Origin: an uncultured virus (IMG/VR IMGVR_UViG_3300025398_000011)
Lineage: Duplodnaviria; Heunggongvirae; Uroviricota; Caudoviricetes
DNA length: 64,000 nt
IMG/VR virus record: IMGVR_UViG_3300025398_000011
Reading direction: 5' to 3' (one strand)
Shown: piece by piece, positions 1 to 30,755 of the stretch
Position numbering within the stretch: the first letter of the stretch is position 1
Layout: every line of letters begins with the position of its first letter
Translations under genes and position numbers: made by a program
The notes under the pieces: model-generated
Database searches by the model: none
Told to the model about the DNA's origin: nothing
The model's input: the letters and a program-made list of their open reading frames with translations, nothing else

Positions 1-239
1 ACCGCGCTCATAGCGGTGTTAAGAAGCGAGTTGTAGAGATACATACGCCACGTATCGGACTCGTGCATAGCCTGAGTCATCAGCGCTTGGAATAGAGGCT
101 CATCTAAGCCGTCAGTACCAGCAGGGATTTTGAGCATTTCGGGGGTAATCTCGTCATTATCCTCGAAAGTAGTAGCAACAACTTCTAAGAGTGAGATCGC
201 GGTCACAATCTCGGTAAAGCGGTATTCTTTGTCGTTCAT
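1..239 (-). CDS. Hypothetical early protein (3' end runs off the window)
   Basis: ATG at 239 after GAAAGG SD on the minus strand; open frame MNDKEYRFTEIV... to the window edge; preceded by an ECF-type promoter. Confidence 0.7.
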   Translation of the reverse strand, partial: MNDKEYRFTEIVTAISLLEVVATTFEDNDEITPEMLKIPAGTDGLDEPLFQALMTQAMHESDTWRMYLYNSLLNTAMSA

Positions 240-269
240 TGGGTCACCTTTCGTAGTAGTTATGATTAG

Positions 270-295
270 AACAGATAGTGGGGGGATTTTATTCC
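270..295 (-). promoter_or_regulatory. ECF (SigH/SigR/SigE-type) promoter P1
   Basis: Minus strand GGAAT(295-291)-N18-GTT(272-270); -35 lies inside the hairpin GTGGGGGGA..TCCCCCCAC. Confidence 0.8.
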
Positions 296-311
296 CCCCA
301 CCAGCCCCCGA

Positions 312-788
312 TTAGTCTTCTGAGGCTACTGCTGAGAGCAGGTCGGTGTCGAGGTCATAGACCCAAACATCAGCGTAATCAACGTTATCGCCGTATGAAA
401 CCTCAAACTTGAGTCGGACATTATCAACTTCGAGGTTCTCGAGGACTTCGGCGGTGGCTTCTTCCTCAGATTCAGCCTCGACATTTGGAACTGTGAGGAT
501 TACATTACCCTCATAGCAGACCTCAACTGTAAAGGTGGAAGTGATGTTTTCGATACACGCCCAGCCGTTGTTGATGGCGATGGCGTTGTAGGTTTCCACC
601 GCTTCGTAGCGAGTGAGCGTACCTTCGGAAACTAGACCGCGGAGTGCGGTAATGGTGTTCTTCTGGACATCAGTAGTCCATTGGATACGGCTGAGTTCTA
701 CGCGAGAGTCAGCGAGTGCGAAAGCGTTTGCGCGTGAGATGTGGTCTGTTTGGTCACAGACAACTGGCGCGGTTGTTAGATCGGACAT
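312..788 (-). CDS. Hypothetical acidic early protein
   Basis: 158-aa ORF with AGGAG SD, downstream of promoter P2. Confidence 0.8.
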   Translation of the reverse strand: MSDLTTAPVVCDQTDHISRANAFALADSRVELSRIQWTTDVQKNTITALRGLVSEGTLTRYEAVETYNAIAINNGWACIENITSTFTVEVCYEGNVILTVPNVEAESEEEATAEVLENLEVDNVRLKFEVSYGDNVDYADVWVYDLDTDLLSAVASED

Positions 789-829
789 TGTGTTCTCCTG
801 TCTAGTAGTAGTTTGTCTTACACTCTTAG

Positions 830-855
830 AACACTCTAGAGTAGAGTTTTATTCC
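830..855 (-). promoter_or_regulatory. ECF-type promoter P2
   Basis: GGAAT(855-851)-N18-GTT(832-830) followed by CTAA. Confidence 0.8.
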
Positions 856-860
856 CCCAG

Positions 861-904
861 CCAACTCTCAGGTAACTCTCAGACAACTCTCAGGAAACTC
901 TCAG
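861..904. repeat. Four tandem 11-bp NNAACTCTCAG units (MprA-box-like array A)
   Basis: ccaactctcag gtaactctcag acaactctcag gaaactctcag, immediately upstream of the P2 -35 element. Confidence 0.9.
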
Positions 905-914
905 GAAGTTTGTG

Positions 915-943
915 TTGGATGAATTGTCCAACAATTCATCCAA
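915..943. repeat. Perfect 13-bp inverted repeat with 3-nt loop
   Basis: TTGGATGAATTGT-CCA-ACAATTCATCCAA. Confidence 0.85.
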
Positions 944-987
944 TGCTTTTATGCTTTTATGCTTCTAATTCGGCGGGCGGGCGGGTC

Positions 988-1013
988 AACACAAACATTC
1001 TCTGGTTTATTCC
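988..1013 (-). promoter_or_regulatory. ECF-type promoter P2b
   Basis: GGAAT(1013-1009)-N18-GTT(990-988). Confidence 0.65.
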
Positions 1014-1039
1014 CTGATGACTGGTCATTCTTGGTCATA

Positions 1040-1079
1040 AAAATAACCCCGCCTAAAGGGAATAAAGGCGGGGCTACTT
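1040..1079 (-). terminator. Intrinsic terminator
   Basis: CCCCGCCT..AGGCGGGG stem; A-run on the left reads as a U-tract on the minus strand. Confidence 0.6.
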
Positions 1080-1180
1080 AGCGGGTGGTGACCATACCTT
1101 TCCGCTTTACTGGGGCAATTACGGCTCTTGGCGTGGACAGGCACGCTTGCTACGGATAGCCCCAGAAACTTGGCTGGTCG

Positions 1181-1552
1181 TTATTTAGTTGTGTTACGTT
1201 TGCGGACACTCTTGCGAGCGTGTGTAAGGCGGCTAGATACTGCGCCTCGTGTGATGTTAAGTGCCTCGCCAATCATAGCGTGAGGAACTTTGAGTTTGCG
1301 AGCCTCCACTAAGAGTTCTTCGATCTTAGCGCGTGTAGTTGCAGAGATTACTTCTGCTTCTTTACGCACGCGAATCGACTCTTTGAGTGCTACATCAGCC
1401 TCAGTAAGTTCGCGGAGTAGGTTCTCGATACGAACGCGGGTCTTTGTGTAAGTACCGCGTGTATGCTTAACCGCTACTGGTGCTAGTGTTTCCTCCTCGG
1501 CAATAATCTCCGCGAGTAGGGCTTTCAGCGTTTCTTTATCCATTGTTTTCAC
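1181..1552 (-). CDS. Coiled-coil/HTH DNA-binding protein
   Basis: C-terminal HAMIGEALNITRGAVSSRL is HTH-like; GGGAGG SD. Confidence 0.65.
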   Translation of the reverse strand: MKTMDKETLKALLAEIIAEEETLAPVAVKHTRGTYTKTRVRIENLLRELTEADVALKESIRVRKEAEVISATTRAKIEELLVEARKLKVPHAMIGEALNITRGAVSSRLTHARKSVRKRNTTK

Positions 1553-1568
1553 CTCCCTTCATAGTTAG

Positions 1569-1594
1569 AACACTTAAGACTAGTCATTTATTCC
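1569..1594 (-). promoter_or_regulatory. ECF-type promoter P3
   Basis: GGAAT(1594-1590)-N18-GTT(1571-1569). Confidence 0.8.
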
Positions 1595-1732
1595 GCAAGC
1601 GGAGAGAAATCTTGCCCAATCAAATCGTGGGTTATCGGCTTCGAATACTCTACCGACCGCGTACACGACTTCTTGAGGTGCAGAGGCGCTCTTGAGCGCC
1701 CCTGCCATTGCTACATAATCTTTGCGACTCAT
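1580..1732 (-). CDS. Small conserved phage protein (MSRKDY...DNPRFD..RF..AC type); not in the ORF track
   Basis: Hand translation MSRKDYVAMAGALKSASAPQEVVYAVGRVFEADNPRFDWARFLSACGIND; start overlaps the upstream stop. Confidence 0.75.
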   Translation of the reverse strand: MSRKDYVAMAGALKSASAPQEVVYAVGRVFEADNPRFDWARFLSACGIND

Positions 1733-1899
1733 AAGAACTCGAATGGGTCGCGGTCTTCGAATATATCCATAAACATATCGAAGTCACCTGATTCGAGCGC
1801 GTACGATAGATCGCTAGCCATATTCTGCTCGATACGAGCATTCTGCTGGCAAGTGCCACAGTCGCTAGACTCATCACCTAGGTGGATAGTGTGCGCCAT
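1729..1899 (-). CDS. Small protein with H/CxxC motif
   Basis: ATG at 1899 after GGAGG SD; MAHTIH...CGTC. Confidence 0.7.
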   Translation of the reverse strand: MAHTIHLGDESSDCGTCQQNARIEQNMASDLSYALESGDFDMFMDIFEDRDPFEFL

Positions 1900-2093
1900 T
1901 AGAACACCTCCCCGAACGCTTGCACGATTGTGGAGTAATCGACCCCACCGCGAGTGAGCCACTTATAAATCAGGCTGTGAATATCGTCATTCTCGCGGAT
2001 AGCCTCCACGATTAGGCTGTGCTCAACTAGAAGTGAGCCAGATAGTGCGTTCACGAGATCAACTACTTCTCGATTTTGCTGTACTGTAAGCAT
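1899..2093 (-). CDS. Hypothetical protein
   Basis: ATG at 2093 (MLTVQQN), AAGGGA SD, translationally coupled to the next gene. Confidence 0.7.
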   Translation of the reverse strand: MLTVQQNREVVDLVNALSGSLLVEHSLIVEAIRENDDIHSLIYKWLTRGGVDYSTIVQAFGEVF

Positions 2094-2144
2094 ACTTTCC
2101 CTTTCTGCTTTAGAGTGATCGCCTGTCGATCTTCTCAATAGTAG

Positions 2145-2170
2145 AACAGTTACACCCACCTATTTATTCC
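2145..2170 (-). promoter_or_regulatory. ECF-type promoter P4
   Basis: GGAAT(2170-2166)-N18-GTT(2147-2145). Confidence 0.8.
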
Positions 2171-2174
2171 ATCA

Positions 2175-2207
2175 CCGACTCTCAGATAACTCTCAGGAAT
2201 CTCTTAG
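2175..2207. repeat. Three 11-bp units (MprA-box-like array B)
   Basis: ccgactctcag ataactctcag gaatctcttag. Confidence 0.85.
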
Positions 2208-2233
2208 GGAATAAAAAATAGGGAACGTTTGTT
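2208..2233 (+). promoter_or_regulatory. Rightward ECF-type promoter
   Basis: GGAAT(2208-2212)-N18-GTT(2231-2233) on the plus strand, divergent from P4. Confidence 0.55.
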
Positions 2234-2336
2234 GATTTATGCCCTATTCCCAATGCCACAATGTTTGTGTTGACCCACCTCCCCATTCTCACCTTGGGGA
2301 ATAGATATAGGCGCCCAAGGGGTAGGCGCCTAATCC

Positions 2337-2615
2337 TTATTCGTAGTCGAACGATATCCAAGGCTCTAAGTGATGAGCCTCTACTATTGCGTAGGCTGGG
2401 GCTTGAGGTTCTCCCCGCCAAGTAATCGGTTCAGGTAGATCGATTAGCGCGCCAGAGTCTCCTTCGTTGCACTTCTGGATAGCCTCTATGCAAGGTTCTA
2501 CCATAGACTTTGGTACTGGTGGATAATGATTACTCGTTAGATGAATCCCGATCTGATCATCTAGGGAGAGTTGTAACTCCCCACTAGATAGATCCTCTGC
2601 AAAATTGCGTCCCAT
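2337..2615 (-). CDS. Conserved hypothetical phage protein
   Basis: 92-aa ORF with HLTSNHYPPVP motif and GAAGGG SD. Confidence 0.8.
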   Translation of the reverse strand: MGRNFAEDLSSGELQLSLDDQIGIHLTSNHYPPVPKSMVEPCIEAIQKCNEGDSGALIDLPEPITWRGEPQAPAYAIVEAHHLEPWISFDYE

Positions 2616-2626
2616 TGTGTTCCCTT

Positions 2627-2857
2627 CTAGTTGTTGTCGTTAGGGTCGTACCAACCCTCGTTAGAATTTGATTCTTTGCACTTTGGGCAGATCCACTCGG
2701 CGTACCAAGTGACTTCACCCATAGATATGTATTCGGTAGTAGGGACTTCTCCCACCCAACCGCAAGCGCACTCTAATTCCTGAACGCTTTCAGCCTCGTC
2801 GTAGCCTGCAATTTGAGGCTCGAATCCCGTTACCCCTGGAGGGTAGTTCCCGCTCAT
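2627..2857 (-). CDS. Zinc-ribbon protein
   Basis: CACG...CPKC; NYPPGVTG N-terminus. Confidence 0.75.
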   Translation of the reverse strand: MSGNYPPGVTGFEPQIAGYDEAESVQELECACGWVGEVPTTEYISMGEVTWYAEWICPKCKESNSNEGWYDPNDNN

Positions 2858-3144
2858 ACTGACTCCTCCTCGAAGATAGAGTCGCGCTGAGCGTCATACT
2901 CTGCGAGCGCCTTAGCCTCCTCATACTCACCGATAGCGTTAGATAGCGCGTCAATGATCTGATTAGCCTGAGCCCGCGTTAAGCGTAGGTTCTGGATAGC
3001 GTAGAAAGATACTGAATTGCTCCCAGCCCAGCCACTAGCCTCCACACTTAAATATATGTCGGCGTCTAGTGGGTCTGCTACACGCACTTTAAAATCCTGC
3101 GCGTCAGACACATCATAAGTGTTATTAGTATAAAATCTATCCAT
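2854..3144 (-). CDS. Hypothetical protein
   Basis: 96-aa ORF with AGGGAG SD, downstream of P5. Confidence 0.8.
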   Translation of the reverse strand: MDRFYTNNTYDVSDAQDFKVRVADPLDADIYLSVEASGWAGSNSVSFYAIQNLRLTRAQANQIIDALSNAIGEYEEAKALAEYDAQRDSIFEEESV

Positions 3145-3185
3145 TGTCTTGCTCCCTTGTAGTAGTAGTGGTCTTACACTTATAG

Positions 3186-3211
3186 AACAAATAGACCCCT
3201 CATATTATTCC
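3186..3211 (-). promoter_or_regulatory. ECF-type promoter P5
   Basis: GGAAT(3211-3207)-N18-GTT(3188-3186). Confidence 0.8.
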
Positions 3212-3216
3212 CTCGG

Positions 3217-3238
3217 CTAACTATCAGATAACTCTCAG
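3217..3238. repeat. Two 11-bp units (MprA-box-like array C)
   Basis: ctaactatcag ataactctcag, upstream of P5. Confidence 0.8.
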
Positions 3239-3511
3239 GAATGAAGTGTTACTTGAGGGTTAGACGTTTTGCTCTCTTTTGTCTAATGTCTTTTATAGGG
3301 TTCAATTTATTACGCCTTACCCGAATGCCGTTCATATGTTTGTGTTGGACTATGCCAAACCCACTTGCCTAGCCCTTGACAGGGCTAATAGATAGGGCGC
3401 GGTTTCCCGCGCCTACCTTTTACTTCTTGAAGAATGCTATCGAGAAGCAGATCCCTGCTCCCAATAACATCGCTGTTATTGGGAGGCCGGAAACTAGGGG
3501 ATTTAGGAGGC

Positions 3512-4069
3512 TCATACTAGAGCCTCCTTCATTGACTTACGAGCGCGGGCTAGTCGGCTCATTACTGTGCCGACTTCGATCTTGAGGATTCCCGCGATTT
3601 CCTCATATGAGTAGCCCTCAGCCTTGAGTAGGAGAATCTCGCGGTGAGCCTTTGAGATATTCTGCAAGGCGCTTGCCAATTCTGGAGAGTATCCACCAGA
3701 GAGGCTGGATAGATAGGCATTTTCCGCGCTTGCCTCAGAGAATCGAGAGTCCGACTTCACTTCGCTGTCCTCATCACTGGCGAGGACAGCGTCCTCCATA
3801 GTCGTACCCTGCTCGAGCAATTCCTCAATAGGTGAGAATGAGATGCGATCTTCTGCGCGGTAATCGTTACGGAAAGTGTTACGGAGGATAGTTACTAGCC
3901 ACCCGACAAGATTACCCTCTGAGAATGAATCGCTTGCCTTGATCGCCTTTTCTGCCGTAGTCTGCACTAGGTCATTCGCCTTGTGAGAATCGCGTGTGAG
4001 ATTAAACGCCACCGAGTAGAGAGTGTCGTAATAATCAACTAGTGCCTGACCCATATCCTGCTTGTTCAT
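3512..4069 (-). CDS. ECF RNA polymerase sigma factor, SigH/SigR-like
   Basis: Region 2 LYSVAFNLTRD..KANDLVQTT..KA..SFSEGNLVGWLVTILRNTFRNDYR; region 4 GYSYEEIAGILKIEVGTVMSRLARAR; likely start ATG 4069 (MNKQD). Confidence 0.92.
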   Translation of the reverse strand: MNKQDMGQALVDYYDTLYSVAFNLTRDSHKANDLVQTTAEKAIKASDSFSEGNLVGWLVTILRNTFRNDYRAEDRISFSPIEELLEQGTTMEDAVLASDEDSEVKSDSRFSEASAENAYLSSLSGGYSPELASALQNISKAHREILLLKAEGYSYEEIAGILKIEVGTVMSRLARARKSMKEALV

Positions 4070-4120
4070 ATTTTTTCCCTTGTTATTCGGGCTTGCCCTG
4101 TGCTTGCCCTGTGCCTGTAT

Positions 4121-4146
4121 AACGGACACTACACCCAATTTATTCC
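4121..4146 (-). promoter_or_regulatory. ECF-type promoter P6 in front of the sigma gene
   Basis: GGAAT(4146-4142)-N18-GTT(4123-4121); -10 reads CGTTA. Confidence 0.8.
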
Positions 4147-4230
4147 CTGAGAGTTTCCTGAGAATGGACTATCAGCCGACTCTCAGGAAACTATCAGACA
4201 CCCCCCAGGGTTAACTCAGCCAATTCTCAG
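4147..4230. repeat. MprA-box-like array D: two inverted plus six forward 11-bp-phased units
   Basis: CTGAGA at 4147 and 4158; forward units end in CAG at 4175, 4186, 4197, 4208, 4219 and 4230. Confidence 0.9.
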
Positions 4231-4396
4231 GAACGGCGCCAGATAAAATCCACAGGTATCACATATATGGGGGAGGCAGTAGCCTGCGGTAGTTACGAAT
4301 AGAATAGACGGGGAAGCAGAGTTAGCCGATTTGCGGGGAGTGGCGCGTTGTGTTAAAGAGGTTGCATAGGTTGCAAGGTTGCGCTAAGTTGCGGTA

Positions 4397-4624
4397 ATGA
4401 GAAAGTACCAAAAGATAACGCTAGAGATTGAGATCGTTGGGTTAACAGATAAAGAGATTACCCCTGAGCAGTTGACCAAGCTTGCTAGTCAGACTAGAAA
4501 GGGTCTTAAAGAGGCGCTTTATGGGGCAAAGATAAGTCATGGCGGTATATCGATGAGGACTATTGTCGATGAAGCTTCTTTATCTGAAGTCAATAAGATC
4601 CATAAAGAGCTCACTGGGAAGTAG
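4397..4624 (+). CDS. Hypothetical protein, probably leaderless
   Basis: TTGCAT(4362)-N17-TAAGTT(4385-4390), 6 nt before the ATG; no SD. Confidence 0.7.
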   Translation: MRKYQKITLEIEIVGLTDKEITPEQLTKLASQTRKGLKEALYGAKISHGGISMRTIVDEASLSEVNKIHKELTGK

Positions 4625-4629
4625 CGGTT

Positions 4630-4806
4630 ATGGAATTAGACCAGAATAGAGTCATTGCGAGAATGGGTAAGTGCTTTACTCCTGATTGCGAGGAGGACCC
4701 TGTGTGGTTTGCCTACTCCTGGTGGCGCTATTGTGATGAGCATGTCCCTGAGCGGGCGGCAAATCCCGATAAGACCTATGTCTACATCTGGCATACATTT
4801 GCTTGA
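4630..4806 (+). CDS. Small Cys/His zinc-finger protein (not in the ORF track)
   Basis: MELDQNRVIARMGKCFTPDCEE...YCDEHVP..., 58 aa. Confidence 0.65.
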   Translation: MELDQNRVIARMGKCFTPDCEEDPVWFAYSWWRYCDEHVPERAANPDKTYVYIWHTFA

Positions 4807-4833
4807 CAGCCTTCATCGCGGGAATGCTAGACT
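4803..4833 (+). promoter_or_regulatory. Housekeeping sigma (SigA/HrdB)-type promoter
   Basis: TTGACA(4803) and TGc-TAGACT(4828-4833), 6 nt before ATG 4840 (leaderless). Confidence 0.65.
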
Positions 4834-4839
4834 TCATCC

Positions 4840-4986
4840 ATGACTAGAGATGCAGATATGGACGCCTTCGAGACTATGCTTAGAGCCTCCATTGCGAAGG
4901 ATGTGGCCTCATTCCTACGGGTTCACGAGGTCTATAACGATGAAGAGCTCTTAGAGATCATCTGGAGGAAAAATGGAGAAGTTTGA
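4840..4986 (+). CDS. Small hypothetical protein
   Basis: MTRDADMDAFETMLRASIAK..., 48 aa, overlaps the next ORF. Confidence 0.55.
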   Translation: MTRDADMDAFETMLRASIAKDVASFLRVHEVYNDEELLEIIWRKNGEV

Positions 4987-5059
4987 GAGCTACCTGCCAT
5001 ATCTGCTAGTAGCGACAATCGCCGTTAGTGTTCTCGCGGTCTATATGGTCAACCGATGA
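4973..5059 (+). CDS. Small single-TM protein
   Basis: MEKFESYLPYLLVATIAVSVLAVYMVNR; GGAGG SD; ATGA coupling. Confidence 0.6.
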   Translation: MEKFESYLPYLLVATIAVSVLAVYMVNR

Positions 5060-10517: not shown

Positions 10518-11897
10518 ATGACAGTTATTCGTGACTCGGGCTACAAGCAAGCCCCTTCAGGTAACGTTGCTGTTGATTTTGTCTACGGAAACCTTCCACT
10601 TCAGACAAATGACGACCGCACTGGTACATCACCAGTTACCTACAATGCTACTGGCGGAACAACAGGCTCTGCCGGATCCGACATTGACACTGCTGTAGTA
10701 ACAGCGGCTTCTGGTGACGGAACCACAATTACATACACAGCAGCTAATAACTTCAACGCTGGTCAGCTTGTAACTGTTACTGGGCTTTCAAGCACAGTTG
10801 CTATCACAGGCATCACAGCTTCTGCTGGTGTTGTAACTTATGCAACCTCTAGCACAACAGGTCTTTCAGCCGGTCAGACAATTGTTATTACCGGAGCTTC
10901 TACTAGCGGCTTTAACGGCACCAAGACTATCTTGGCTGTTACAACCAACACAAACTTCACAGTAACTTCAGCTGCTACAGGCTCAACCTCAACAGCTACA
11001 GGTACCTACACATCTGCTTACAATAAGACCTCAGCAACAATTGCTACTGCATCATCTTCAAACTTCACAGTTACAAGCTCTACTCAAGATCGTGCCGTTT
11101 CAGGCGCTACTGGTAAGGCCGCAGTTAACCTAGAAGTTATCCCAGGATTTGGCGCAGACTACGGCTGGGGAACAACAACTGACTATGCTAGCTACACAAT
11201 TGCCGCCGCAGATCTTACAAAGGCAGTTGGACAGGTAACTCTAACAGTCCCTTCTGATAACCACGTTCGTGCTATCAATGGTTGGGATGCTTTCCCACAG
11301 AACACCTCTAACGGCGGCTTCAACCCAGCTACAAAGCTCTATGCAACTGTAACTGCGGTTTCAGCTTCTGGTGGAACTGTTACCTACACAGCTAACAACA
11401 ACTTCCAGTCAGGACAGACTGTAACAATCACAGGCCTCTACAACTATGTAGCTGCTGGTTCAACTCAGCCAATCGCTACTCAGTACTACGCTCCAACTTA
11501 CACAACTGCATCAGCATTTAACTTGTCTGGCGTAACAGTCGCTTCTGCAACTGCTACACAGTTCACAGTTACAAATGCTGCTACAGACTCAGCACTCGCA
11601 GGTGTTGCAGGAAACGCTGTTGTCACAATTGCAGCTGTTACCTCTTCCCAGACAGTTCCTACAGTCACAGGTTTGACTGTTAAAGAGGCTGACCGCCTTC
11701 TAGGAAATGCTGACTTCGATACAGGAACAGTCACCTACACGACTTCTGGAGCAACTCTTGCTAACGCAGGAACTGTTTACAGCCAGTCTATTACAGGTAG
11801 CCAGAGCACAGGAACACCAGTTAACTTGGTGGTCTACAAGCTTGCAACTGGTGAAAATCCAGGAACACAGGACGGCACATTCACCTACGTTTGCTAA
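10518..11897 (+). CDS. Ser/Thr-rich virion protein with repeated beta modules and a C-terminal PASTA-like domain
   Basis: Three VTYT..N.F..GQ.V.ITG repeats; TVPTVTGLTVKEA..LL...GTVYSQS..GTPVNLVV. Confidence 0.75.
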   Translation: MTVIRDSGYKQAPSGNVAVDFVYGNLPLQTNDDRTGTSPVTYNATGGTTGSAGSDIDTAVVTAASGDGTTITYTAANNFNAGQLVTVTGLSSTVAITGITASAGVVTYATSSTTGLSAGQTIVITGASTSGFNGTKTILAVTTNTNFTVTSAATGSTSTATGTYTSAYNKTSATIATASSSNFTVTSSTQDRAVSGATGKAAVNLEVIPGFGADYGWGTTTDYASYTIAAADLTKAVGQVTLTVPSDNHVRAINGWDAFPQNTSNGGFNPATKLYATVTAVSASGGTVTYTANNNFQSGQTVTITGLYNYVAAGSTQPIATQYYAPTYTTASAFNLSGVTVASATATQFTVTNAATDSALAGVAGNAVVTIAAVTSSQTVPTVTGLTVKEADRLLGNADFDTGTVTYTTSGATLANAGTVYSQSITGSQSTGTPVNLVVYKLATGENPGTQDGTFTYVC

Positions 11898-11940: not shown

Positions 11941-12219
11941 TTATGCCGCTCTACTTCTGGAGGCTCTTATATCCTGTCGTTGCCTCTGAGTTGTGCCTGC
12001 CCAGATACCGACTAGATCTGCATGCTTTAGTGCATACTCTAGACAAGGCTCTTTGAACTCACATGACCTGCATAATTTGCGGGCCACGTTTAAGGTTAGA
12101 CGAGGATCTTTGAACTCGTCTGGAAAGAACAGGTCAGGGTCTGTTTGAGCGCATATCTGCGTACCATCAAACCCTGGGGCTTTAATACCAACCGTGTCCT
12201 TGCCAGAACTTCCAAGCAT
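11941..12219 (-). CDS. whiB: WhiB family transcription factor
   Basis: C..TDPDLFFP...ARKLCRSC....PCLEYA...GIWAGTT.RQR; start codon uncertain. Confidence 0.95.
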   Translation of the reverse strand: MLGSSGKDTVGIKAPGFDGTQICAQTDPDLFFPDEFKDPRLTLNVARKLCRSCEFKEPCLEYALKHADLVGIWAGTTQRQRQDIRASRSRAA

Positions 12220-12697
12220 TGCATGCGTCTCCGTATCTTTTTTCAATGTAATGTAGGCCATATTTAATTTGTAGTTGCGCCACCGCAGTCTTCTTTACAT
12301 TGTAGTTATCCCATGTTGATGGGAGAAACTGAGCAATACCAAAGGCATGCGAGCCCATATTAAGGGCTTTAGGGTTGAAGTGGCTTTCGTGAGACCAAAG
12401 TGAGTTTAAACACTTCCATTCAGTCATGGACTTGCCCGCCGAATACTCCGTTAAGAAGGCAATCGTCTGAGCATCAAAGTACTTAACGTAAGTACTAGCC
12501 AAGGCTTTCTTGGCGTCTGTCCGTGTCGTCTTCACGGTTATGTAGTTAAGGGATACTGTCACTACCCTTTCCTTAGGCTCTGGGGCTGGTAGGGCATTGG
12601 CTGGTGTAAACAACTGTGTCCACACTAGCACTGCTGCTACAAGCAGTCTAGATACCTTTTTTACATCAACTGTGAAGTTGATTCTGATATTAAGCAT
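12182..12697 (-). CDS. Secreted lytic transglycosylase-like (SLT) protein
   Basis: Signal-like N-terminus; WKCL..LW.HES.FNP.A...AFGIAQ...QIKYGL.YI..RYG..C.AW......WY. Confidence 0.88.
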   Translation of the reverse strand: MLNIRINFTVDVKKVSRLLVAAVLVWTQLFTPANALPAPEPKERVVTVSLNYITVKTTRTDAKKALASTYVKYFDAQTIAFLTEYSAGKSMTEWKCLNSLWSHESHFNPKALNMGSHAFGIAQFLPSTWDNYNVKKTAVAQLQIKYGLHYIEKRYGDACNAWKFWQGHGWY

Positions 12698-24905: not shown

Positions 24906-27900
24906 ATGAGTTCTTGCGGTTACTGTGGAGGCTACTGGCCTTCTTGTGGTTGCTCTATTCAACCAATTATTGTTACTCCACCTGCGCCAATTGTAGTTAG
25001 CGTTCAAGCGCCTATTGGTGGAGCTAATGGGCTACAAGGTATCCAAGGCCCTCAAGGTATTACTGGATACATTGGTCATGATGGCGCTCAGGGAACACAA
25101 GGCATCCAGGGTGTGCAAGGCACTCAAGGTAATCAAGGCTTCGGTTATGATCAATTACAGGGTGTGCAAGGTCCTCAAGGTGTTCAGGGTGTACAAGGTA
25201 TCCAAGGCATTCAGGGGTACACAGGTCTACAAGGACACTATGGAACTCAAGGTACGCAAGGCACACAAGGACCTCAGGGAACTACAGGTTCTCAGGGTAC
25301 GCAGGGTATCCAAGGAGTACAAGGTACTCAAGGCATTCAAGGTGTTCAAGGATTGTTGGGTACTCAAGGTACCCAAGGTACAACAGGTTCACAAGGAGCA
25401 ACTGGTACTCAGGGATCTCAGGGAACACAAGGTCTACTTGGACTACAAGGTCTACTTGGTCTACAGGGAAACCAAGGAACTACGGGTGTTCAAGGACTAC
25501 AAGGTATCCAGGGTGTCCAAGGGACTCAAGGAACTACGGGTACACAAGGCCTGCAAGGTATTCAAGGACGTTCATTTACAGGCGTAACCTCTGCCACTTC
25601 TACCACAATTGGGACTGGCTCTAAAGTATTTTCAGTAACTAACTCTGGCGCTTATTCTGTTGGTCAGTATGTTGTTGTAACAAACACTGGAACCCCAACT
25701 AACTTTATGTTTGGACAAGTCACTGCTGTAACAACTGATTCCAGTATCACAGTAAACGTAACAGGCGTTGGAGGCTCTGGAACTTTCACTGCTTGGACTT
25801 TTGGAGTAAGTGGTCTACAAGGGGCTCAAGGAACGCAAGGTATCCAAGGCGTCCAAGGAACACAAGGTATACAGGGCAACCAGGGAACTCAAGGGGTCCA
25901 AGGCGTACAAGGCCTTACAGGTGCTCAGGGACTTCAAGGCGTTCAAGGTACACAGGGTAACCAAGGTTTTGGTTATGCGCAGCTTCAGGGCGTTCAAGGG
26001 CCGCAGGGAACCCAAGGTATTCAGGGGGTTCAAGGTAACCAAGGAACTCTTGGCATTCAAGGATTTACTGGTACACAGGGCTTTACTGGGACACAAGGAA
26101 CCACTGGTACCCAAGGCGCCGTCGGTACACAAGGCACCACAGGTACCCAAGGATTTGTTGGATCTCAAGGAACTATTGGATCTCAAGGAAATACTGGCGC
26201 ACAAGGAACTACAGGAGCAACTGGTGCTACTGGTTCTCAAGGAACACAAGGGCTTCAGGGTAATCAGGGCACAACCGGTATTCAAGGCACTACAGGAACC
26301 CAAGGATTTACAGGCACTCAAGGTGTTGTAGGGTCTCAAGGAACTGTTGGAGCGCAAGGCACACAAGGAACGCAAGGCCTTCAAGGGCTACAAGGTTACC
26401 AAGGGCCGCAGGGAACACAAGGCACTCAAGGGAACCAAGGAACCACTGGTTCACAGGGCACTACTGGTACTCAAGGCGCTACTGGTTCTCAAGGAATTCA
26501 GGGTACTCAAGGCGTCCAGGGAACAACTGGATCGCAAGGAACCACTGGAACACAGGGCGCTACTGGCACACAGGGAACACAAGGTGTTCAAGGTGTAACT
26601 GGTCAAGCTGGTTCTCAAAACGCACACGGTGCAGTAAACGCTGTATCCACTGCTACTGGAACAGGTACAAGCACCTACTTCGCTGGAAGTTCTGACACAG
26701 AGGGTGGCACAGGTGTAGGCGCGTATATTGAGGCAAACGCAAATGGCGTAATCCCTACAATTGATGGCGTCACACTCTCTGTAGGTAACCGCGTTCTCTT
26801 TACAGGACGAGCAAACTCAATTGAAAACGGCGTTTACTCTGTTACAAGCGTAGGCTCATCTAGCAGTAAATATCGCTTTACTCGCGCAACTGACTCCGAT
26901 AACCATGTCACGGGGCAAGTTGAAGGCGGAGATTTTGTTTACGTTCTAACTGGAACAACATATGTATCCACTACTTGGGTTCTAACCTCAACAGGGTCTA
27001 ACTCTGACGGAACAATAAAGATTGGCATAGACCCAATCGTGTGGACACAAGCGGGCGGTATTGGAGCACAAGGCTCCACAGGCTCACAAGGTACAACTGG
27101 TATTCAAGGTATTCAAGGATATACAGGAACTACAGGTGCTCAGGGCTCTACTGGTACGACTGGTGCACAAGGCACACAGGGTATTCAGGGCACACAGGGC
27201 AACACAGGATCTACTGGTTTTCAGGGAACAACTGGTATCCAAGGAATTCAGGGTTATACAGGAACTACTGGTGCGCAGGGCTCTACTGGTCAAACAGGAT
27301 CACAAGGTACCACTGGATCACAAGGCACAACAGGCTCACAAGGCACCACCGGTACTCAAGGAGCAACAGGGGCGCAGGGTACTCAAGGTATTCAAGGACT
27401 TATTGGTATTCAAGGTACCCAAGGAACACAGGGAGTTCAGGGTAACCAAGGAGCTCAGGGTAATCAGGGACTTATTGGTCTACAAGGGTTTACAGGAACA
27501 CAAGGAGCCACTGGAACGCAAGGAACGACCGGTGCTACCGGCTCTACTGGTTCTCAAGGTACAACCGGAACTCAAGGCGCTACTGGAGCCCAAGGTACGC
27601 AAGGTATTCAAGGAGTTATCGGCTCTCAAGGAGCTACAGGACTTCAAGGCGTTCAAGGTACCCAAGGTCTACAGGGGCGTGATGGTGGGCAGCTAACTGC
27701 TACCAGCTATACAGTTAATGGAAGATTATCTAGCGATCAAACTGTTACTTCTGGTGCCGATGCGTTAATTAACTTTATTGACGACTTTGATCCTCAAAAC
27801 TGGTGGGATCCAACTGGGCATCAATTTAAGCCAACTATTGCCGGTTACTACCTCATCAACATTGATTCTTGGTGGGCAACTGGTTCGTTGAGCACTGCTC

Positions 27901-30755
27901 AAACCAACACCCAGGTAAGAAAGAATGGCAACACGATTGCCATTTACCAAAACTCTGTATCCACTACTAATGGTTACACTCAGGGCGGGTCTAAGGTTAT
28001 CTACCTTAATGGCTCCACTGACTATCTAGATTTTACGGCTTATACATCTAATACAACTTCCCAGACTCTGCAATATGGCGGCAGCACAAGCGGTAATGGA
28101 ACTTACTTCTCCGCAACCCTCATCACCAGCGGAACTGTTCAAGGAACACAAGGGACTACTGGATCCCAAGGCACAAACGGAACTAATGGAACAAACGGCA
28201 CTCAGGGCCTAACAGGTAGCCAAGGAACAGTTGGCGCTCAAGGTGTTCAAGGATCTACGGGCACCCAAGGAGCAAGCGGTTCTAATGGAACCAATGGATC
28301 TCAAGGTACTCAAGGAACAACGGGTATCCAAGGACTTACTGGTCTTCAGGGCCTTACTGGTTCTCAAGGAACGACTGGTAACCAAGGAACTCTTGGAACC
28401 CAAGGAACACAAGGAGCAGTTGGTCCTCAAGGAACTACTGGCACACAAGGCTCCCAGGGAACACAAGGTCTTCTTGGTAACCAAGGCACAATTGGTGCAC
28501 AGGGTACCGCTGGTTTTGTTGGCTCTAACGGTTCTCAAGGTACCCAGGGTATCCAGGGAACCACTGGCGGAAGCGGTATTGTTAACGTCGGTAACGGGCT
28601 TCAGTATGTATCTGGAACTCAAACCCTTTCACTACAGGCAGTTACAGGCACGGGTTACACAACAGTCCTATCTACAAGCCCAACCCTTACATCGCCAAAT
28701 ATCGGTAACGCCACTGCCGCATCTGTAACTGTAGGAACGCTTACCTATACCCCTGCTAACGCGCTCTTTACTGCTCAGAACTCCACTAACAACTACAACC
28801 AGATCATTATCCAGAATTCATTGGCTGGGACTCAGGCCTCTGCGGACTTAGTTGTTAACAATGACTCTTCTACGGACTCAACCTACTACGGCGACTTTGG
28901 TATTAACAGCTCTGCTTTTAGCGGAACTGGCAGCTTGTCTCTTCCAAATGCCACCTACCTATACTCCTCTAACGGTGAGTTAGTATTAGGAACTATTACC
29001 TCAAACGGTATTCGCTTTGTAACTAACAACAGCACCACAGACGCAATGTCTATCAACTCTGCTGGTTATGTAAACGTTGCCGGTACCCTACAGGCCGGAA
29101 CCATCTCTGGCGGCTCTGCTTCAGCAGCTCAGACCACGATTAAACAGCGCTCTGATACGGCCGCTAACTGGACTTCAGCTAACCCAACTCTGACTGCAGG
29201 TGTCTGGGCATATGAAACTGATACCAAGAAGATAAAGATCGGTGACGGCTCTACCGCTTGGACATCACTTGCCTACTTTACTGGCGTTCAAGGTTTTACT
29301 GGAACTCAGGGAACTATTGGTAGCCAAGGCGTTCAAGGACTTCAGGGCGCAACAGGATCACAAGGCACTATTGGTAATCAGGGTTCAGTTGGACTTCAGG
29401 GCGTTACTGGTATGCAGGGCGCGACTGGAACACAAGGATTTGTTGGAACCCAAGGAACTCTTGGACTTCAAGGCTTCTACGGTATCCAAGGACTTCAGGG
29501 TATCCAAGGCAACATCGGTGTTCAGGGTGTTGTATTCGGTGCTACTGCTCCTGCCAACCAAGGCGTACTTTGGGTAAATACTGTTTTGTCATCTAGTTCG
29601 ATCCAAGGCACTCAAGGTATTCAGGGTGGTGGATTTAACCAAGCGCAGGGTACTCAAGGCTTGCAAGGCACTATTGGTTCTATTGGTATTCAAGGCACTA
29701 CTGGTATTCAAGGGTCGCTTGGACTTCAAGGTACTACTGGTTCTGCTGGATATGGCGTTAATATTCCATCAGGACTTAGCAATAGTTTGTTTGTTGGCGA
29801 TCCGACTCAACTTTCTTTAACTGGCAATTACAACATTGCCATGGGTACAAATATTGGTCGTACTGGTACTAATACTAGTTATCAAAATACTTTTATTGGT
29901 ACTAATATCGCTTCTACTGCTCCAGTGAGTGGGCATGACAATGTAATGATTGGCTTGGCTTCTGCTTTTGGTTTAACTTCAGGATCTAACAATGTTGTTG
30001 TTGGTAATTCTGCGGGTAACGGTTTAACTAGTGGTGGCGCCAATATTTTTGTTGGTAATTATGCTGGGTATCAAGTTTCAACTAGCAGTAACACTATTCA
30101 TATTGGCAGTAGTTCAACTGTTTCAAATGTTTCAAATTCGATTGTATTAGGTCAGCCTTATGTATATAACGCCAATACGGTAGCGATTGACCCTTTTTAC
30201 GCAAATTACCCTCTTATTGGCGGAAACGCTGGTACAGGTACAAATGATTCAACTAGATATGCAACTGTTGGCGATGACAACCACAAGAACCAGCAAATAC
30301 CAGCAGAGCAGTATTATGCTTCTTGGACTCAAGGCTCGATCATAACAACAACTGCCACAAGCCTATTTGGTGTTGCTCCATATACTTTAGCAGGTAATGC
30401 TTATGATTTTGAATACAATATGTATGTTTCTAATTCTGGAACAGGAACTATTACCCTTGGATGGGGTGGAGTTGCTAACGGCTCGTTTATGACCAATGTT
30501 CAGGTTATGTTACAAAATGGTACTGCCATAACTGGTATTACTAACTATAATCAAACTTCGAACAAAGCAATATCAGGCGGCAATACTGCTGCTACTCACA
30601 TGATTACAATTCGCGGATTCTGCCAAGGCGCACAAGGTAGATTCCCTCTTATGGCATCTGTTTCAACTGGTCAGATTCGTTTGCTTCAAGGTTGGTTCCG
30701 TTTTGTAAATAGAACTCAATGGGGCGCACCTCTTACATTCGGAAATATTGCTTAG
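24906..30755 (+). CDS. Giant collagen-like (Gly-X-Gln) fibre protein, 1949 aa
   Basis: Long GXQ tracts interrupted by globular domains: fibre N-terminal-like, C1q-like, Mtd_N-like and adhesin-head-like repeats. Confidence 0.9.
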   Translation: MSSCGYCGGYWPSCGCSIQPIIVTPPAPIVVSVQAPIGGANGLQGIQGPQGITGYIGHDGAQGTQGIQGVQGTQGNQGFGYDQLQGVQGPQGVQGVQGIQGIQGYTGLQGHYGTQGTQGTQGPQGTTGSQGTQGIQGVQGTQGIQGVQGLLGTQGTQGTTGSQGATGTQGSQGTQGLLGLQGLLGLQGNQGTTGVQGLQGIQGVQGTQGTTGTQGLQGIQGRSFTGVTSATSTTIGTGSKVFSVTNSGAYSVGQYVVVTNTGTPTNFMFGQVTAVTTDSSITVNVTGVGGSGTFTAWTFGVSGLQGAQGTQGIQGVQGTQGIQGNQGTQGVQGVQGLTGAQGLQGVQGTQGNQGFGYAQLQGVQGPQGTQGIQGVQGNQGTLGIQGFTGTQGFTGTQGTTGTQGAVGTQGTTGTQGFVGSQGTIGSQGNTGAQGTTGATGATGSQGTQGLQGNQGTTGIQGTTGTQGFTGTQGVVGSQGTVGAQGTQGTQGLQGLQGYQGPQGTQGTQGNQGTTGSQGTTGTQGATGSQGIQGTQGVQGTTGSQGTTGTQGATGTQGTQGVQGVTGQAGSQNAHGAVNAVSTATGTGTSTYFAGSSDTEGGTGVGAYIEANANGVIPTIDGVTLSVGNRVLFTGRANSIENGVYSVTSVGSSSSKYRFTRATDSDNHVTGQVEGGDFVYVLTGTTYVSTTWVLTSTGSNSDGTIKIGIDPIVWTQAGGIGAQGSTGSQGTTGIQGIQGYTGTTGAQGSTGTTGAQGTQGIQGTQGNTGSTGFQGTTGIQGIQGYTGTTGAQGSTGQTGSQGTTGSQGTTGSQGTTGTQGATGAQGTQGIQGLIGIQGTQGTQGVQGNQGAQGNQGLIGLQGFTGTQGATGTQGTTGATGSTGSQGTTGTQGATGAQGTQGIQGVIGSQGATGLQGVQGTQGLQGRDGGQLTATSYTVNGRLSSDQTVTSGADALINFIDDFDPQNWWDPTGHQFKPTIAGYYLINIDSWWATGSLSTAQTNTQVRKNGNTIAIYQNSVSTTNGYTQGGSKVIYLNGSTDYLDFTAYTSNTTSQTLQYGGSTSGNGTYFSATLITSGTVQGTQGTTGSQGTNGTNGTNGTQGLTGSQGTVGAQGVQGSTGTQGASGSNGTNGSQGTQGTTGIQGLTGLQGLTGSQGTTGNQGTLGTQGTQGAVGPQGTTGTQGSQGTQGLLGNQGTIGAQGTAGFVGSNGSQGTQGIQGTTGGSGIVNVGNGLQYVSGTQTLSLQAVTGTGYTTVLSTSPTLTSPNIGNATAASVTVGTLTYTPANALFTAQNSTNNYNQIIIQNSLAGTQASADLVVNNDSSTDSTYYGDFGINSSAFSGTGSLSLPNATYLYSSNGELVLGTITSNGIRFVTNNSTTDAMSINSAGYVNVAGTLQAGTISGGSASAAQTTIKQRSDTAANWTSANPTLTAGVWAYETDTKKIKIGDGSTAWTSLAYFTGVQGFTGTQGTIGSQGVQGLQGATGSQGTIGNQGSVGLQGVTGMQGATGTQGFVGTQGTLGLQGFYGIQGLQGIQGNIGVQGVVFGATAPANQGVLWVNTVLSSSSIQGTQGIQGGGFNQAQGTQGLQGTIGSIGIQGTTGIQGSLGLQGTTGSAGYGVNIPSGLSNSLFVGDPTQLSLTGNYNIAMGTNIGRTGTNTSYQNTFIGTNIASTAPVSGHDNVMIGLASAFGLTSGSNNVVVGNSAGNGLTSGGANIFVGNYAGYQVSTSSNTIHIGSSSTVSNVSNSIVLGQPYVYNANTVAIDPFYANYPLIGGNAGTGTNDSTRYATVGDDNHKNQQIPAEQYYASWTQGSIITTTATSLFGVAPYTLAGNAYDFEYNMYVSNSGTGTITLGWGGVANGSFMTNVQVMLQNGTAITGITNYNQTSNKAISGGNTAATHMITIRGFCQGAQGRFPLMASVSTGQIRLLQGWFRFVNRTQWGAPLTFGNIA

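Follow-up and report, generated by a model that had tools for sequence, protein, structure and literature searches.

Some phages tie their transcription to a regulator of the host through the binding sites of that regulator, as with the Spo0A boxes in phi29 and the Pho boxes and NtcA sites in cyanophages. Here we describe four arrays of an 11-bp unit that lie upstream of promoters between positions 861 and 4230 of a 64,000-nt stretch of DNA (the window) from an uncultured virus (IMG/VR record IMGVR_UViG_3300025398_000011), a myovirus of whose genome the window holds part. The closest described sites are those of two actinobacterial regulators, PhoP of Mycobacterium tuberculosis and MprA of the envelope-stress system MprAB. 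M. tuberculosis PhoP binds as a tandem dimer to 7-bp boxes with a strict 4-bp spacer, and it binds more tightly to three or four repeats (PMC4832192). Phosphorylated MprA activates the promoter P2 of sigE, which is read by RNA polymerase with an extracytoplasmic function (ECF) sigma factor (PMC10027907). For the ECF promoters, a study of Corynebacterium glutamicum gives a T at -31 for the SigH-specific ones, which have the form GGAAT-N18-19-GTT and are tabulated as GGAATA-N17-GTT, whereas SigE recognises only GGAAC, with a C at -31, there and in M. tuberculosis (PMC10012870). On the evidence presented below, the phage arrays are probably (with a probability of roughly 0.6) tandem sites for a predicted host regulator of the OmpR/PhoB family with MprA-type specificity, the half-site being TCTCAG/CTGAGAG.

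The four arrays were built from the minus-strand unit CTGAGAG(TT)NN, which reads CTGAGAGTTNN on that strand, and were located at 861-904, 2175-2207, 3217-3238 and 4165-4197. Tandem Repeats Finder returned a period of 11 for all of them, at 863-907 (4.1 copies), 2178-2208 (2.8), 3218-3238 (1.9) and 4167-4197 (2.8). The heptamer CTGA[GT]AG started on the minus strand at 871, 882, 893 and 904, at 2185 and 2196, at 3227 and 3238, and at 4175, 4186 and 4197 (plus coordinates), and on the plus strand at 4147. It was present 26 times in the window, against a mean of 17.1 in 300 first-order Markov simulations. Same-strand pairs exactly 11 bp apart numbered seven in the window and zero in all 300 simulations. 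Throughout the window, same-strand spacings of up to 40 bp were exclusively 11, 22 or 33 bp, and no phased pair was found in the rest of the 64,000 nt outside 861-4230. A first-pass annotation, made from the letters of the window alone, had proposed both the exact 11-bp period and the absence of such arrays from the other 60 kb, and both were borne out.

The arrays differed in the number and quality of their units, with 12 strong units in 3.4 kb. Array A (861-904, minus strand) consisted of four 11-bp units CTGAGAGTTNN, with its proximal heptamer 16 bp from the -35 element. Array B (2175-2207, minus strand) contained three units at a distance of 15 bp; its period and site were as first annotated, and its third, distal unit proved to be a degenerate CTAAGAG. 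Two divergent -35 elements flanked this array, one on the minus strand (2164-2170) and one on the plus strand (2208-2214), and it may act on the two promoters. Array C (3217-3238, minus strand) had two units, CTGAGAG and CTGATAG, 16 bp from the -35 element. Array D (4165-4208, minus strand) was formed by three strong direct units (4165-4197) and a degenerate CTGGGGG (4198-4208). Six units had originally been counted at 4165-4230; the two distal ones (4209-4230) were not conserved in the close relative described below (locus L006), which carried unrelated sequence there. Two inverted units on the plus strand (4147-4164) were found as first annotated; they read TTCTCAGGAAACTCTCAG toward the gene of a phage sigma factor and abut the GGAATAA of its promoter.

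A profile of 89 units from 27 promoters, including those of relatives, showed 1.5-2.0 bits at each of positions 1-7 (CTGAGAG), about 0.9 bits at positions 8-9 (TT) and about 0.1 bits at positions 10-11. Since the information was concentrated in 7 of the 11 positions, the unit was resolved into a 7-bp box and a 4-bp spacer. Tandem copies of such a box at an exact 11-bp period agreed with the OmpR/PhoB-type architecture suggested at first sight. The 7-bp box, the 4-bp spacer and the tandem order are also those of the M. tuberculosis PhoP sites (TCACAGC-N4-TCACAGC; PDB 5ed4), although the phage box differs from them at positions 3 and 7. Because the arrays fit this 7 + 4 tandem rule exactly, they can be read as candidate assembly sites for two to four molecules of an OmpR-family protein. 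The same profile bore on an explanation without any reader protein, in which phased T-rich repeats bend the DNA or act as an UP element that raises promoter strength. TT(T) tracts were indeed phased at 11 bp upstream of the -35 elements, but the information peaked in CTGAGAG and not in the T tract, and the heptamer recurred beside regulator genes in high-GC genomes with GC-rich spacers, so that we regard this explanation as very improbable.

The promoters adjoining the arrays were recognized from six minus-strand sites of the form GGAATAA-N15-(T/C)GTT(C/A)TA, with the first G at 295, 855, 1594, 2170, 3211 and 4146. All six were located 30-60 bp before a start codon, and every gene in positions 1 to 4100 was on the minus strand. 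The form GGAATA-N17-GTT was found eight times in the window against 0.47 expected, always at 295-4146; the two additional sites were at 1013 on the minus strand and 2208 on the plus strand. Arrays were present at four of the six gene promoters: the promoter of gene 312-788 (827-855, GGAATAA-N15-TGTTCTA) had array A upstream, the promoter of the operon 1899-2093, 1729-1902 and 1580-1732 (2142-2170) array B, the promoter of the operon 2854-3144, 2627-2857 and 2337-2615 (3183-3211) array C, and the promoter of the sigma gene (4118-4146, GGAATAA-N15-CGTTATA) the inverted units and array D; all four promoters are on the minus strand. The CGTTATA variant of the sigma promoter was retained in two relatives (L274 and L378). 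Two minus-strand promoters of the same type had no array, one for gene 3-239 (267-295) and one for gene 1181-1552 (1566-1594). A further minus-strand site, GGAATAA-N15-TGTTGAC (985-1013), lay upstream of array A, and the divergent promoter-like site GGAATAA-N15-TGTTGAT (2208-2236, plus strand) abutted array B in the TCTCAG orientation, in a block identical in L006. The predicted 2208(+) site would yield a short transcript antisense to the intergenic region. Terminator-like minus-strand hairpins at 3413-3396 and 2332-2308 separated the transcription units.

The sigma factor is an ECF protein of 185 amino acids (3512-4069, minus strand; Pfam Sigma70_r2 1.8e-13, r4_2 2.9e-12). Its best NCBIfam family was SigH_actino (TIGR02947) with 97.1 bits, below the cut-off of 251.55; it is therefore closest to SigH_actino, yet not a member of the family by the curated cut-off. 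All eight window sites read GGAAT, and none read the SigE-type GGAAC (0/8), by the criterion of PMC10012870. On the basis of GGAATA-N17-GTT with T at -31 and of the best family of the sigma factor, the promoters are classified from their sequence as SigH/SigR-type and not SigE-type, with a consensus taken from C. glutamicum. The sigE-MprA loop that had been cited in the first-pass annotation is therefore an analogy and not a match, since GGAAT stood in place of GGAAC and the sigma factor was closest to SigH_actino. Compared with described SigH/SigR promoters, which the eight sites match, those of the window are phage-borne, and the phage brings its own sigma factor. Because the sigma gene stands behind a promoter of its own type, the first round of its transcription must presumably come from a host sigma factor of the same, SigH-like kind or from read-through. 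Two features were observed around the sigma gene. An 11-bp repeat GCTTGCCCTGT (2.2 copies, 4091-4114) was found in its leader and was kept with small changes in L006. An open reading frame (ORF) of 31 codons (3421-3516, minus strand) encoded a hydrophobic peptide, and its start overlapped the sigma stop codon (ATGA); conceivably, its product is a small membrane protein that is coupled to the sigma factor as its partner.

The arrays stood at a nearly constant distance from these promoters. The C of the proximal heptamer was 16, 15 and 16 bp from the first G of GGAATAA at promoters 855, 2170 and 3211, as expected from the GGAAT elements first noticed beside the arrays. The sigma promoter had another layout, in which the two inverted units ran as TTCTCAGGAAACTCTCAG directly into GGAATAA and the three direct units followed further upstream; the 2208(+) site shared it, with TCTCAG-oriented units abutting GGAATAA. 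Relatives were collected by a metagenome scan that required two units (128 stretches, 125 loci read) and were pooled with the window and L006 into 41 distinct GGAATAA-type promoters. The arrays were kept in these related phages: 27 of the 41 promoters had 2-6 phased units, 13 had none and one had a distant unit, a share of array-bearing promoters that is biased upward because the relatives were chosen by two boxes. This selection leaves two results unaffected. The first is the tight offset from the proximal box to the -35 element, which was 15 bp at 10 promoters, 16 at 10, 17 at two, 19 at one, 26 at two and 29 at two, and thus 15-17 bp in 22 of the 27, with no conservation of the intervening sequence. 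The second is that every relative seen lacked arrays where promoters 295 and 1594 have their orthologues (L338 for the former; L006, L267, L269, L293 and L298 for the latter).

The fixed offset also bore on a role in titration, in which the arrays, with at least fourteen boxes on each copy of the genome, would sequester the phosphorylated host regulator and blunt the stress response of the host. This decoy idea, raised in the first-pass annotation, is a speculation. It is compatible with promoter control, and it draws on the density of strong units in the window and on single loci of other phages with as many as 9-10 units; for a pure decoy, however, an offset held at 15-17 bp would be needless, and as an account of the arrays we consider it improbable. 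The nearest relatives were less informative. An IMG/VR fragment (G001) was 100% identical to positions 2206-5000 of the window, and the close relative, an 87.6-kb record (G002, containing locus L006), encoded a sigma protein of 87% identity. The window and G002 shared 97-99% identity over whole regulatory blocks, compared with 84.9% in the sigma gene, which indicated constraint or recent exchange of entire blocks and not of the boxes alone. With whole blocks nearly identical, this pair is uninformative on the boxes in particular.

Counterparts of the arrays were found in bacterial chromosomes. A scan for three units, with one genome per species, returned at least 120 loci; of the 120 listed, 78 were plain tandem repeats with identical spacers and 42 had non-identical spacers. 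Among the matches listed, a gene for an OmpR-family regulator or a Streptomyces antibiotic regulatory protein (SARP) lay within 400 bp at 7 of the 42 loci with non-identical spacers, against 3 of the 78 plain repeats, and histidine kinases adjoined further loci. In 401 sampled actinobacterial genomes, the two-unit pattern CTGAGAGTTNNCTGAGAG with at most one mismatch gave 27 matches against five for the reversed control, and seven of the 27 were 23-107 bp from an OmpR-family regulator gene. One Nocardia genome carried the perfect two-unit box at two loci, both of them two-component operons. The box therefore adjoins OmpR-family two-component operons in bacterial genomes far more often than by chance. 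The adjacent regulators included PhoP-like proteins, CopR-like proteins of Streptomyces, SARPs, and a group with the recognition helix FPTSGNALEVYVGYLRRK; no NCBIfam equivalog was above its cut-off for any box-adjacent regulator. In two metagenome contigs (L281 and L353), a direct pair of boxes followed by an inverted pair was observed before the regulator gene, an arrangement that recalls the sigma promoter of the phage.

The group with the FPTSGNALEVYVGYLRRK helix led to mprA. At two of its loci (L388 and L262+L389), CTGAGAG-N4-CTGAGAG was present about 22-26 bp before the regulator gene, which was followed by genes for a kinase, an HtrA-type protease and a MoCF-domain protein, in what we take to be the mprA-mprB-pepD-moaB2 order of M. 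tuberculosis. The first-pass annotation had given the mycobacterial MprA box as TCTCAG-N5-TCTCAG; a published M. tuberculosis box was not found in the literature searched. A survey of 61 sampled genomes of the class gave 30 loci matching this regulator. Among the 18 orthologues with at least 70% identity, nine had TCTCAG-N5-TCTCAG with at most two mismatches, all oriented alike and 20-35 nt ahead of the gene, and two more had it at the same place with three mismatches; none of the 12 more distant MprA-like loci had it with at most two mismatches. By our own calculation, about 0.01 match per locus was expected by chance. These comparative data support that form of the box. A conserved GGCA(C/G)ACTG was also observed at the mprA-like loci (L390-L407), between the TCTCAG boxes and the start codon. 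The phage arrays share with the boxes of the mprA-mprB-pepD loci the direct TCTCAG repeat and the 11-bp period. They differ in having 2-4 (up to 6) units instead of two, and in their reversed orientation at three promoters. Phosphorylated MprA likewise acts on an ECF-sigma-dependent promoter, sigE P2 (PMC10027907), although the phage promoters are SigH-type and not SigE-type.

The likeness to MprA boxes proposed in the first-pass annotation was thus upheld by the same box before nine of the 18 mprA orthologues, while the orientation was opposite at three promoters and MprA was not singled out. The half-site TCTCAG is of the MprA type, but PhoP-like, CopR-like and SARP genes were flanked by the box too. 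The binder could accordingly be another host winged-helix regulator, of the PhoP (Rv0757) clade or a SARP, with a signal such as phosphate or pH in place of envelope stress. Eight of the box-adjacent regulators were PhoP-like (that of L120 scored 285 bits to M. tuberculosis PhoP and 190 to the next, PrrA), three SARP genes abutted CTGAGAG arrays, and the TCACAGC-N4 repeats of M. tuberculosis PhoP are one letter off TCTCAG in the first six (PMC4832192). On the other side, the PhoP-like proteins differ from M. tuberculosis PhoP at base-contacting residues, for example from N212 to R in L120, and the regulators with boxes at their own genes mostly shared the helix NxxEVYVGYLR, compared with xxVETYISYLR in the PhoP-like ones. 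We consider a PhoP-clade or SARP binder unlikely. MprA reportedly binds the phoP regulatory region, judging from the title of a paper in a reference list, and on that title the boxes at phoP-like genes may themselves be MprA sites.

Several points, together with the biased sample of relatives and the near-identical blocks of the window and G002, weigh against a host regulator of MprA-type specificity. The boxes at promoters 855, 2170 and 3211 face the other way from those at mprA, with CTGAGAG reading into the gene, and TCTCAG was directed toward the -35 element only in the two inverted units of the sigma promoter and at the 2208(+) site. The box also stood at PhoP-like, CopR-like and SARP genes, so that its specificity class is wider than MprA. 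Genes for MprA-like proteins (E <= 1e-75) were present in just 29 of the 61 sampled genomes of the class. A low-GC actinobacterium with a 1.5-Mb genome (G448) had no close MprA orthologue, the best match being 47% identical, and no enrichment of the box, with 14 matches against 16 for the control. In C. glutamicum, the MprA motif was reported as the different and loose TKTTAAGAAM (PMC12113857). Finally, damage to the envelope as the trigger is a speculation.

The same arrays were present in phages unrelated to that of the window. More than 100 metagenome stretches carried the boxes, and the three-unit pattern was found at 22 loci in IMG/VR, of which one was a plain AT-rich tandem repeat, four were of the family of the window and the rest belonged to several other groups. 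In four other phages (G003-G006; 35-42 kb, estimated 85-100% complete), the arrays occupied a single intergenic locus each, with a terminase-like gene on one side and amidoligase or amidotransferase genes on the other. These phages shared with the window only a lysin, HNH proteins, a capsid protein, WhiB (G006) and a few others; no protein of the module at 1-4400, no early protein and no DNA-binding protein was found in common (blastp E < 1e-4). A common box without a common phage protein pointed to a host factor. On a metagenome contig of 108 kb with a GC content of 0.34 at the locus (L309/L310), boxes were found about 40 bp before GGAATAAA, and with this much lower GC content the element may extend beyond a single lineage of hosts.

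A DNA-binding protein of the phage itself could also bind the arrays and control the promoters without a host regulator. The candidates would be a protein of 123 amino acids with a helix-turn-helix like that of sigma region 4 (1181-1552, minus strand; Pfam Sigma70_r4 5.7e-5, 23 bits, just below the cut-off) or a small early protein, since the leftward module encodes, besides this helix-turn-helix protein, eight small proteins without a Pfam or PHROGs family, and repeated sites next to promoters are frequent targets of repressors and activators in phages. Only the sigma factor, the 123-residue protein and a WhiB protein were recognizable as DNA-binding proteins among the window ORFs by Pfam and PHROGs. 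Identical 9-mer arrays were, however, found in phages without a common early protein, none of the five other array-bearing phage records (0/5) encoded a homologue of the 123-residue protein, and the boxes also adjoined two-component operons in bacterial chromosomes. We therefore judge that a phage-encoded binder, and the 123-residue protein in that role, is unlikely. An OmpR-type DNA-binding domain (Trans_reg_C) above the cut-off was likewise found in none of the five records (G002-G006).

From these observations we infer binding by a host regulator, with activation as its effect. The regulator would line up head to tail along one face of the helix in two to four molecules, with a 7-bp box and a 4-bp spacer for each, and always equally far upstream of the -35 element in SigH/SigR-type promoters (GGAATA-N17-GTT). 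In that position it would help or hinder RNA polymerase with a SigH-like sigma factor of the host or the phage. Activation appears most likely because the boxes lie upstream of the -35 element without overlapping it and because phosphorylated MprA switches on sigE P2 (PMC10027907). Of the six gene promoters in the leftward module, four, including that of the sigma gene, would then be governed by whether a two-component system of the host is phosphorylated, and the two promoters without arrays would rely on nothing but the sigma factor. A more far-reaching proposal is that in many unrelated actinobacterial phages, and perhaps in other phyla, the MprA-type arrays sense envelope stress, so that damage during infection phosphorylates the regulator and fires the SigH-type promoters, and feedback by the sigma factor locks the programme; this proposal is tentative and we hold it to be doubtful.

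The host lineage was indicated by a WhiB-family gene at 11941-12261 (minus strand; Pfam Whib 5.4e-16). To our knowledge, this family is confined to actinobacteria and their phages, and the gene therefore marks an actinobacterial host. The WhiB protein matched 110 of the 401 actinobacterial genomes, every match at 34-47% identity, and no host was singled out; no tRNA gene was found in the window, whose GC content was 46%. Pfam families in the window included a large terminase, an SPP1-type portal, tail sheath, tube and baseplate proteins, a DnaB-type helicase, a primase and an SNF2 helicase. No close isolated phage was found, the terminase being 53% identical to that of Streptomyces phage BRock and 42% to that of Bacillus phage BCD7. 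Known phages covered only 1-2% of the length of the 8-kb left end of the window, and blastn with the array as query gave no match among 50,697 records of isolated phages, to which the low-complexity filter may have contributed. Two other proteins were observed. A protein of 459 amino acids (10518-11897) carried a C-terminal PASTA domain (6.6e-6), which is typical of Gram-positive cell-wall sensors, and an ORF of 1949 amino acids (24906-30755), with many 9-bp-period repeats (Gly-X-Y, collagen-like), is probably a tail fibre.

Further motifs were observed near the arrays. Besides the boxes, the motif GTTTGTGTTG, which reads CAACACAAAC on the promoter strand, was conserved 0-110 bp upstream of the arrays, both in this phage and in several unrelated array-bearing phages. 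The window had five exact copies of GTTTGTGTTG, at 908-917 (plus), 987-996 (minus), 2263-2272 (plus), 3338-3347 (plus) and 10946-10955 (minus), and the motif was also present at L061, L073, L267, L274, L285, L305, L331 and L334. At 985-1013, the motif supplied the -10 element (TGTTGAC) of the further GGAATAA-type site. Directly beyond array A, a hairpin with a 16-bp stem (912-946, GGATGAATTGT...ACAATTCATCC) preceded a T-run on the plus strand; this element could terminate plus-strand transcription or serve as the operator of a dimeric protein. A reading in which the arrays are transcribed into a plus-strand RNA that ends at this hairpin was set aside, because the offset from the -35 element and the bacterial counterparts indicate a role at the DNA level. 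About 190 bp at 3145-3340, between the terminator and array C, were 98-100% identical to L006 and contained no ORF; this conserved segment and the promoter-like 2208(+) site are hints of small non-coding transcripts. In the divergent region, four GTTGC(A/G) repeats (4359-4397), 9-10 bp apart, reached as far as the start codon (4397) of the first gene on the plus strand and formed a repeat family distinct from the arrays. In another phage group of IMG/VR (L061 and L073), two or three TGTGGATAA repeats were found directly beside the arrays. As these repeats are DnaA-box-like, replication iterons or a packaging site were considered; for the phage of the window both were rejected, as its arrays are at four separate promoters with a fixed offset.

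Sites for host regulators in phages are known in principle, and phased arrays of this kind on phage promoters were not found described in the literature searched, where the only mention of MprA in a phage paper concerned predicted protein contacts. The arrays share with the cases of phi29 and the cyanophages the tie of phage transcription to a host regulator through its sites. Those cases involve another regulator family or layout, and none is known to combine long phased arrays with a phage ECF sigma factor. While phages reading host regulators are known in few cases, here one box recurs across several unrelated groups of uncultured phages. This recurrence suggests a common mode of linking phage gene expression to two-component signalling of the host, in a phylum with poorly known control of phage transcription. 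With the boxes as a sequence handle, such phages and the host regulon could both be sought in metagenomes. The circuit of tandem regulator sites, a phage ECF sigma factor and SigH-type promoters is concrete enough to be testable, and if the reading as a sensor of envelope stress were true, it would be a stress-gated developmental switch made from host parts.

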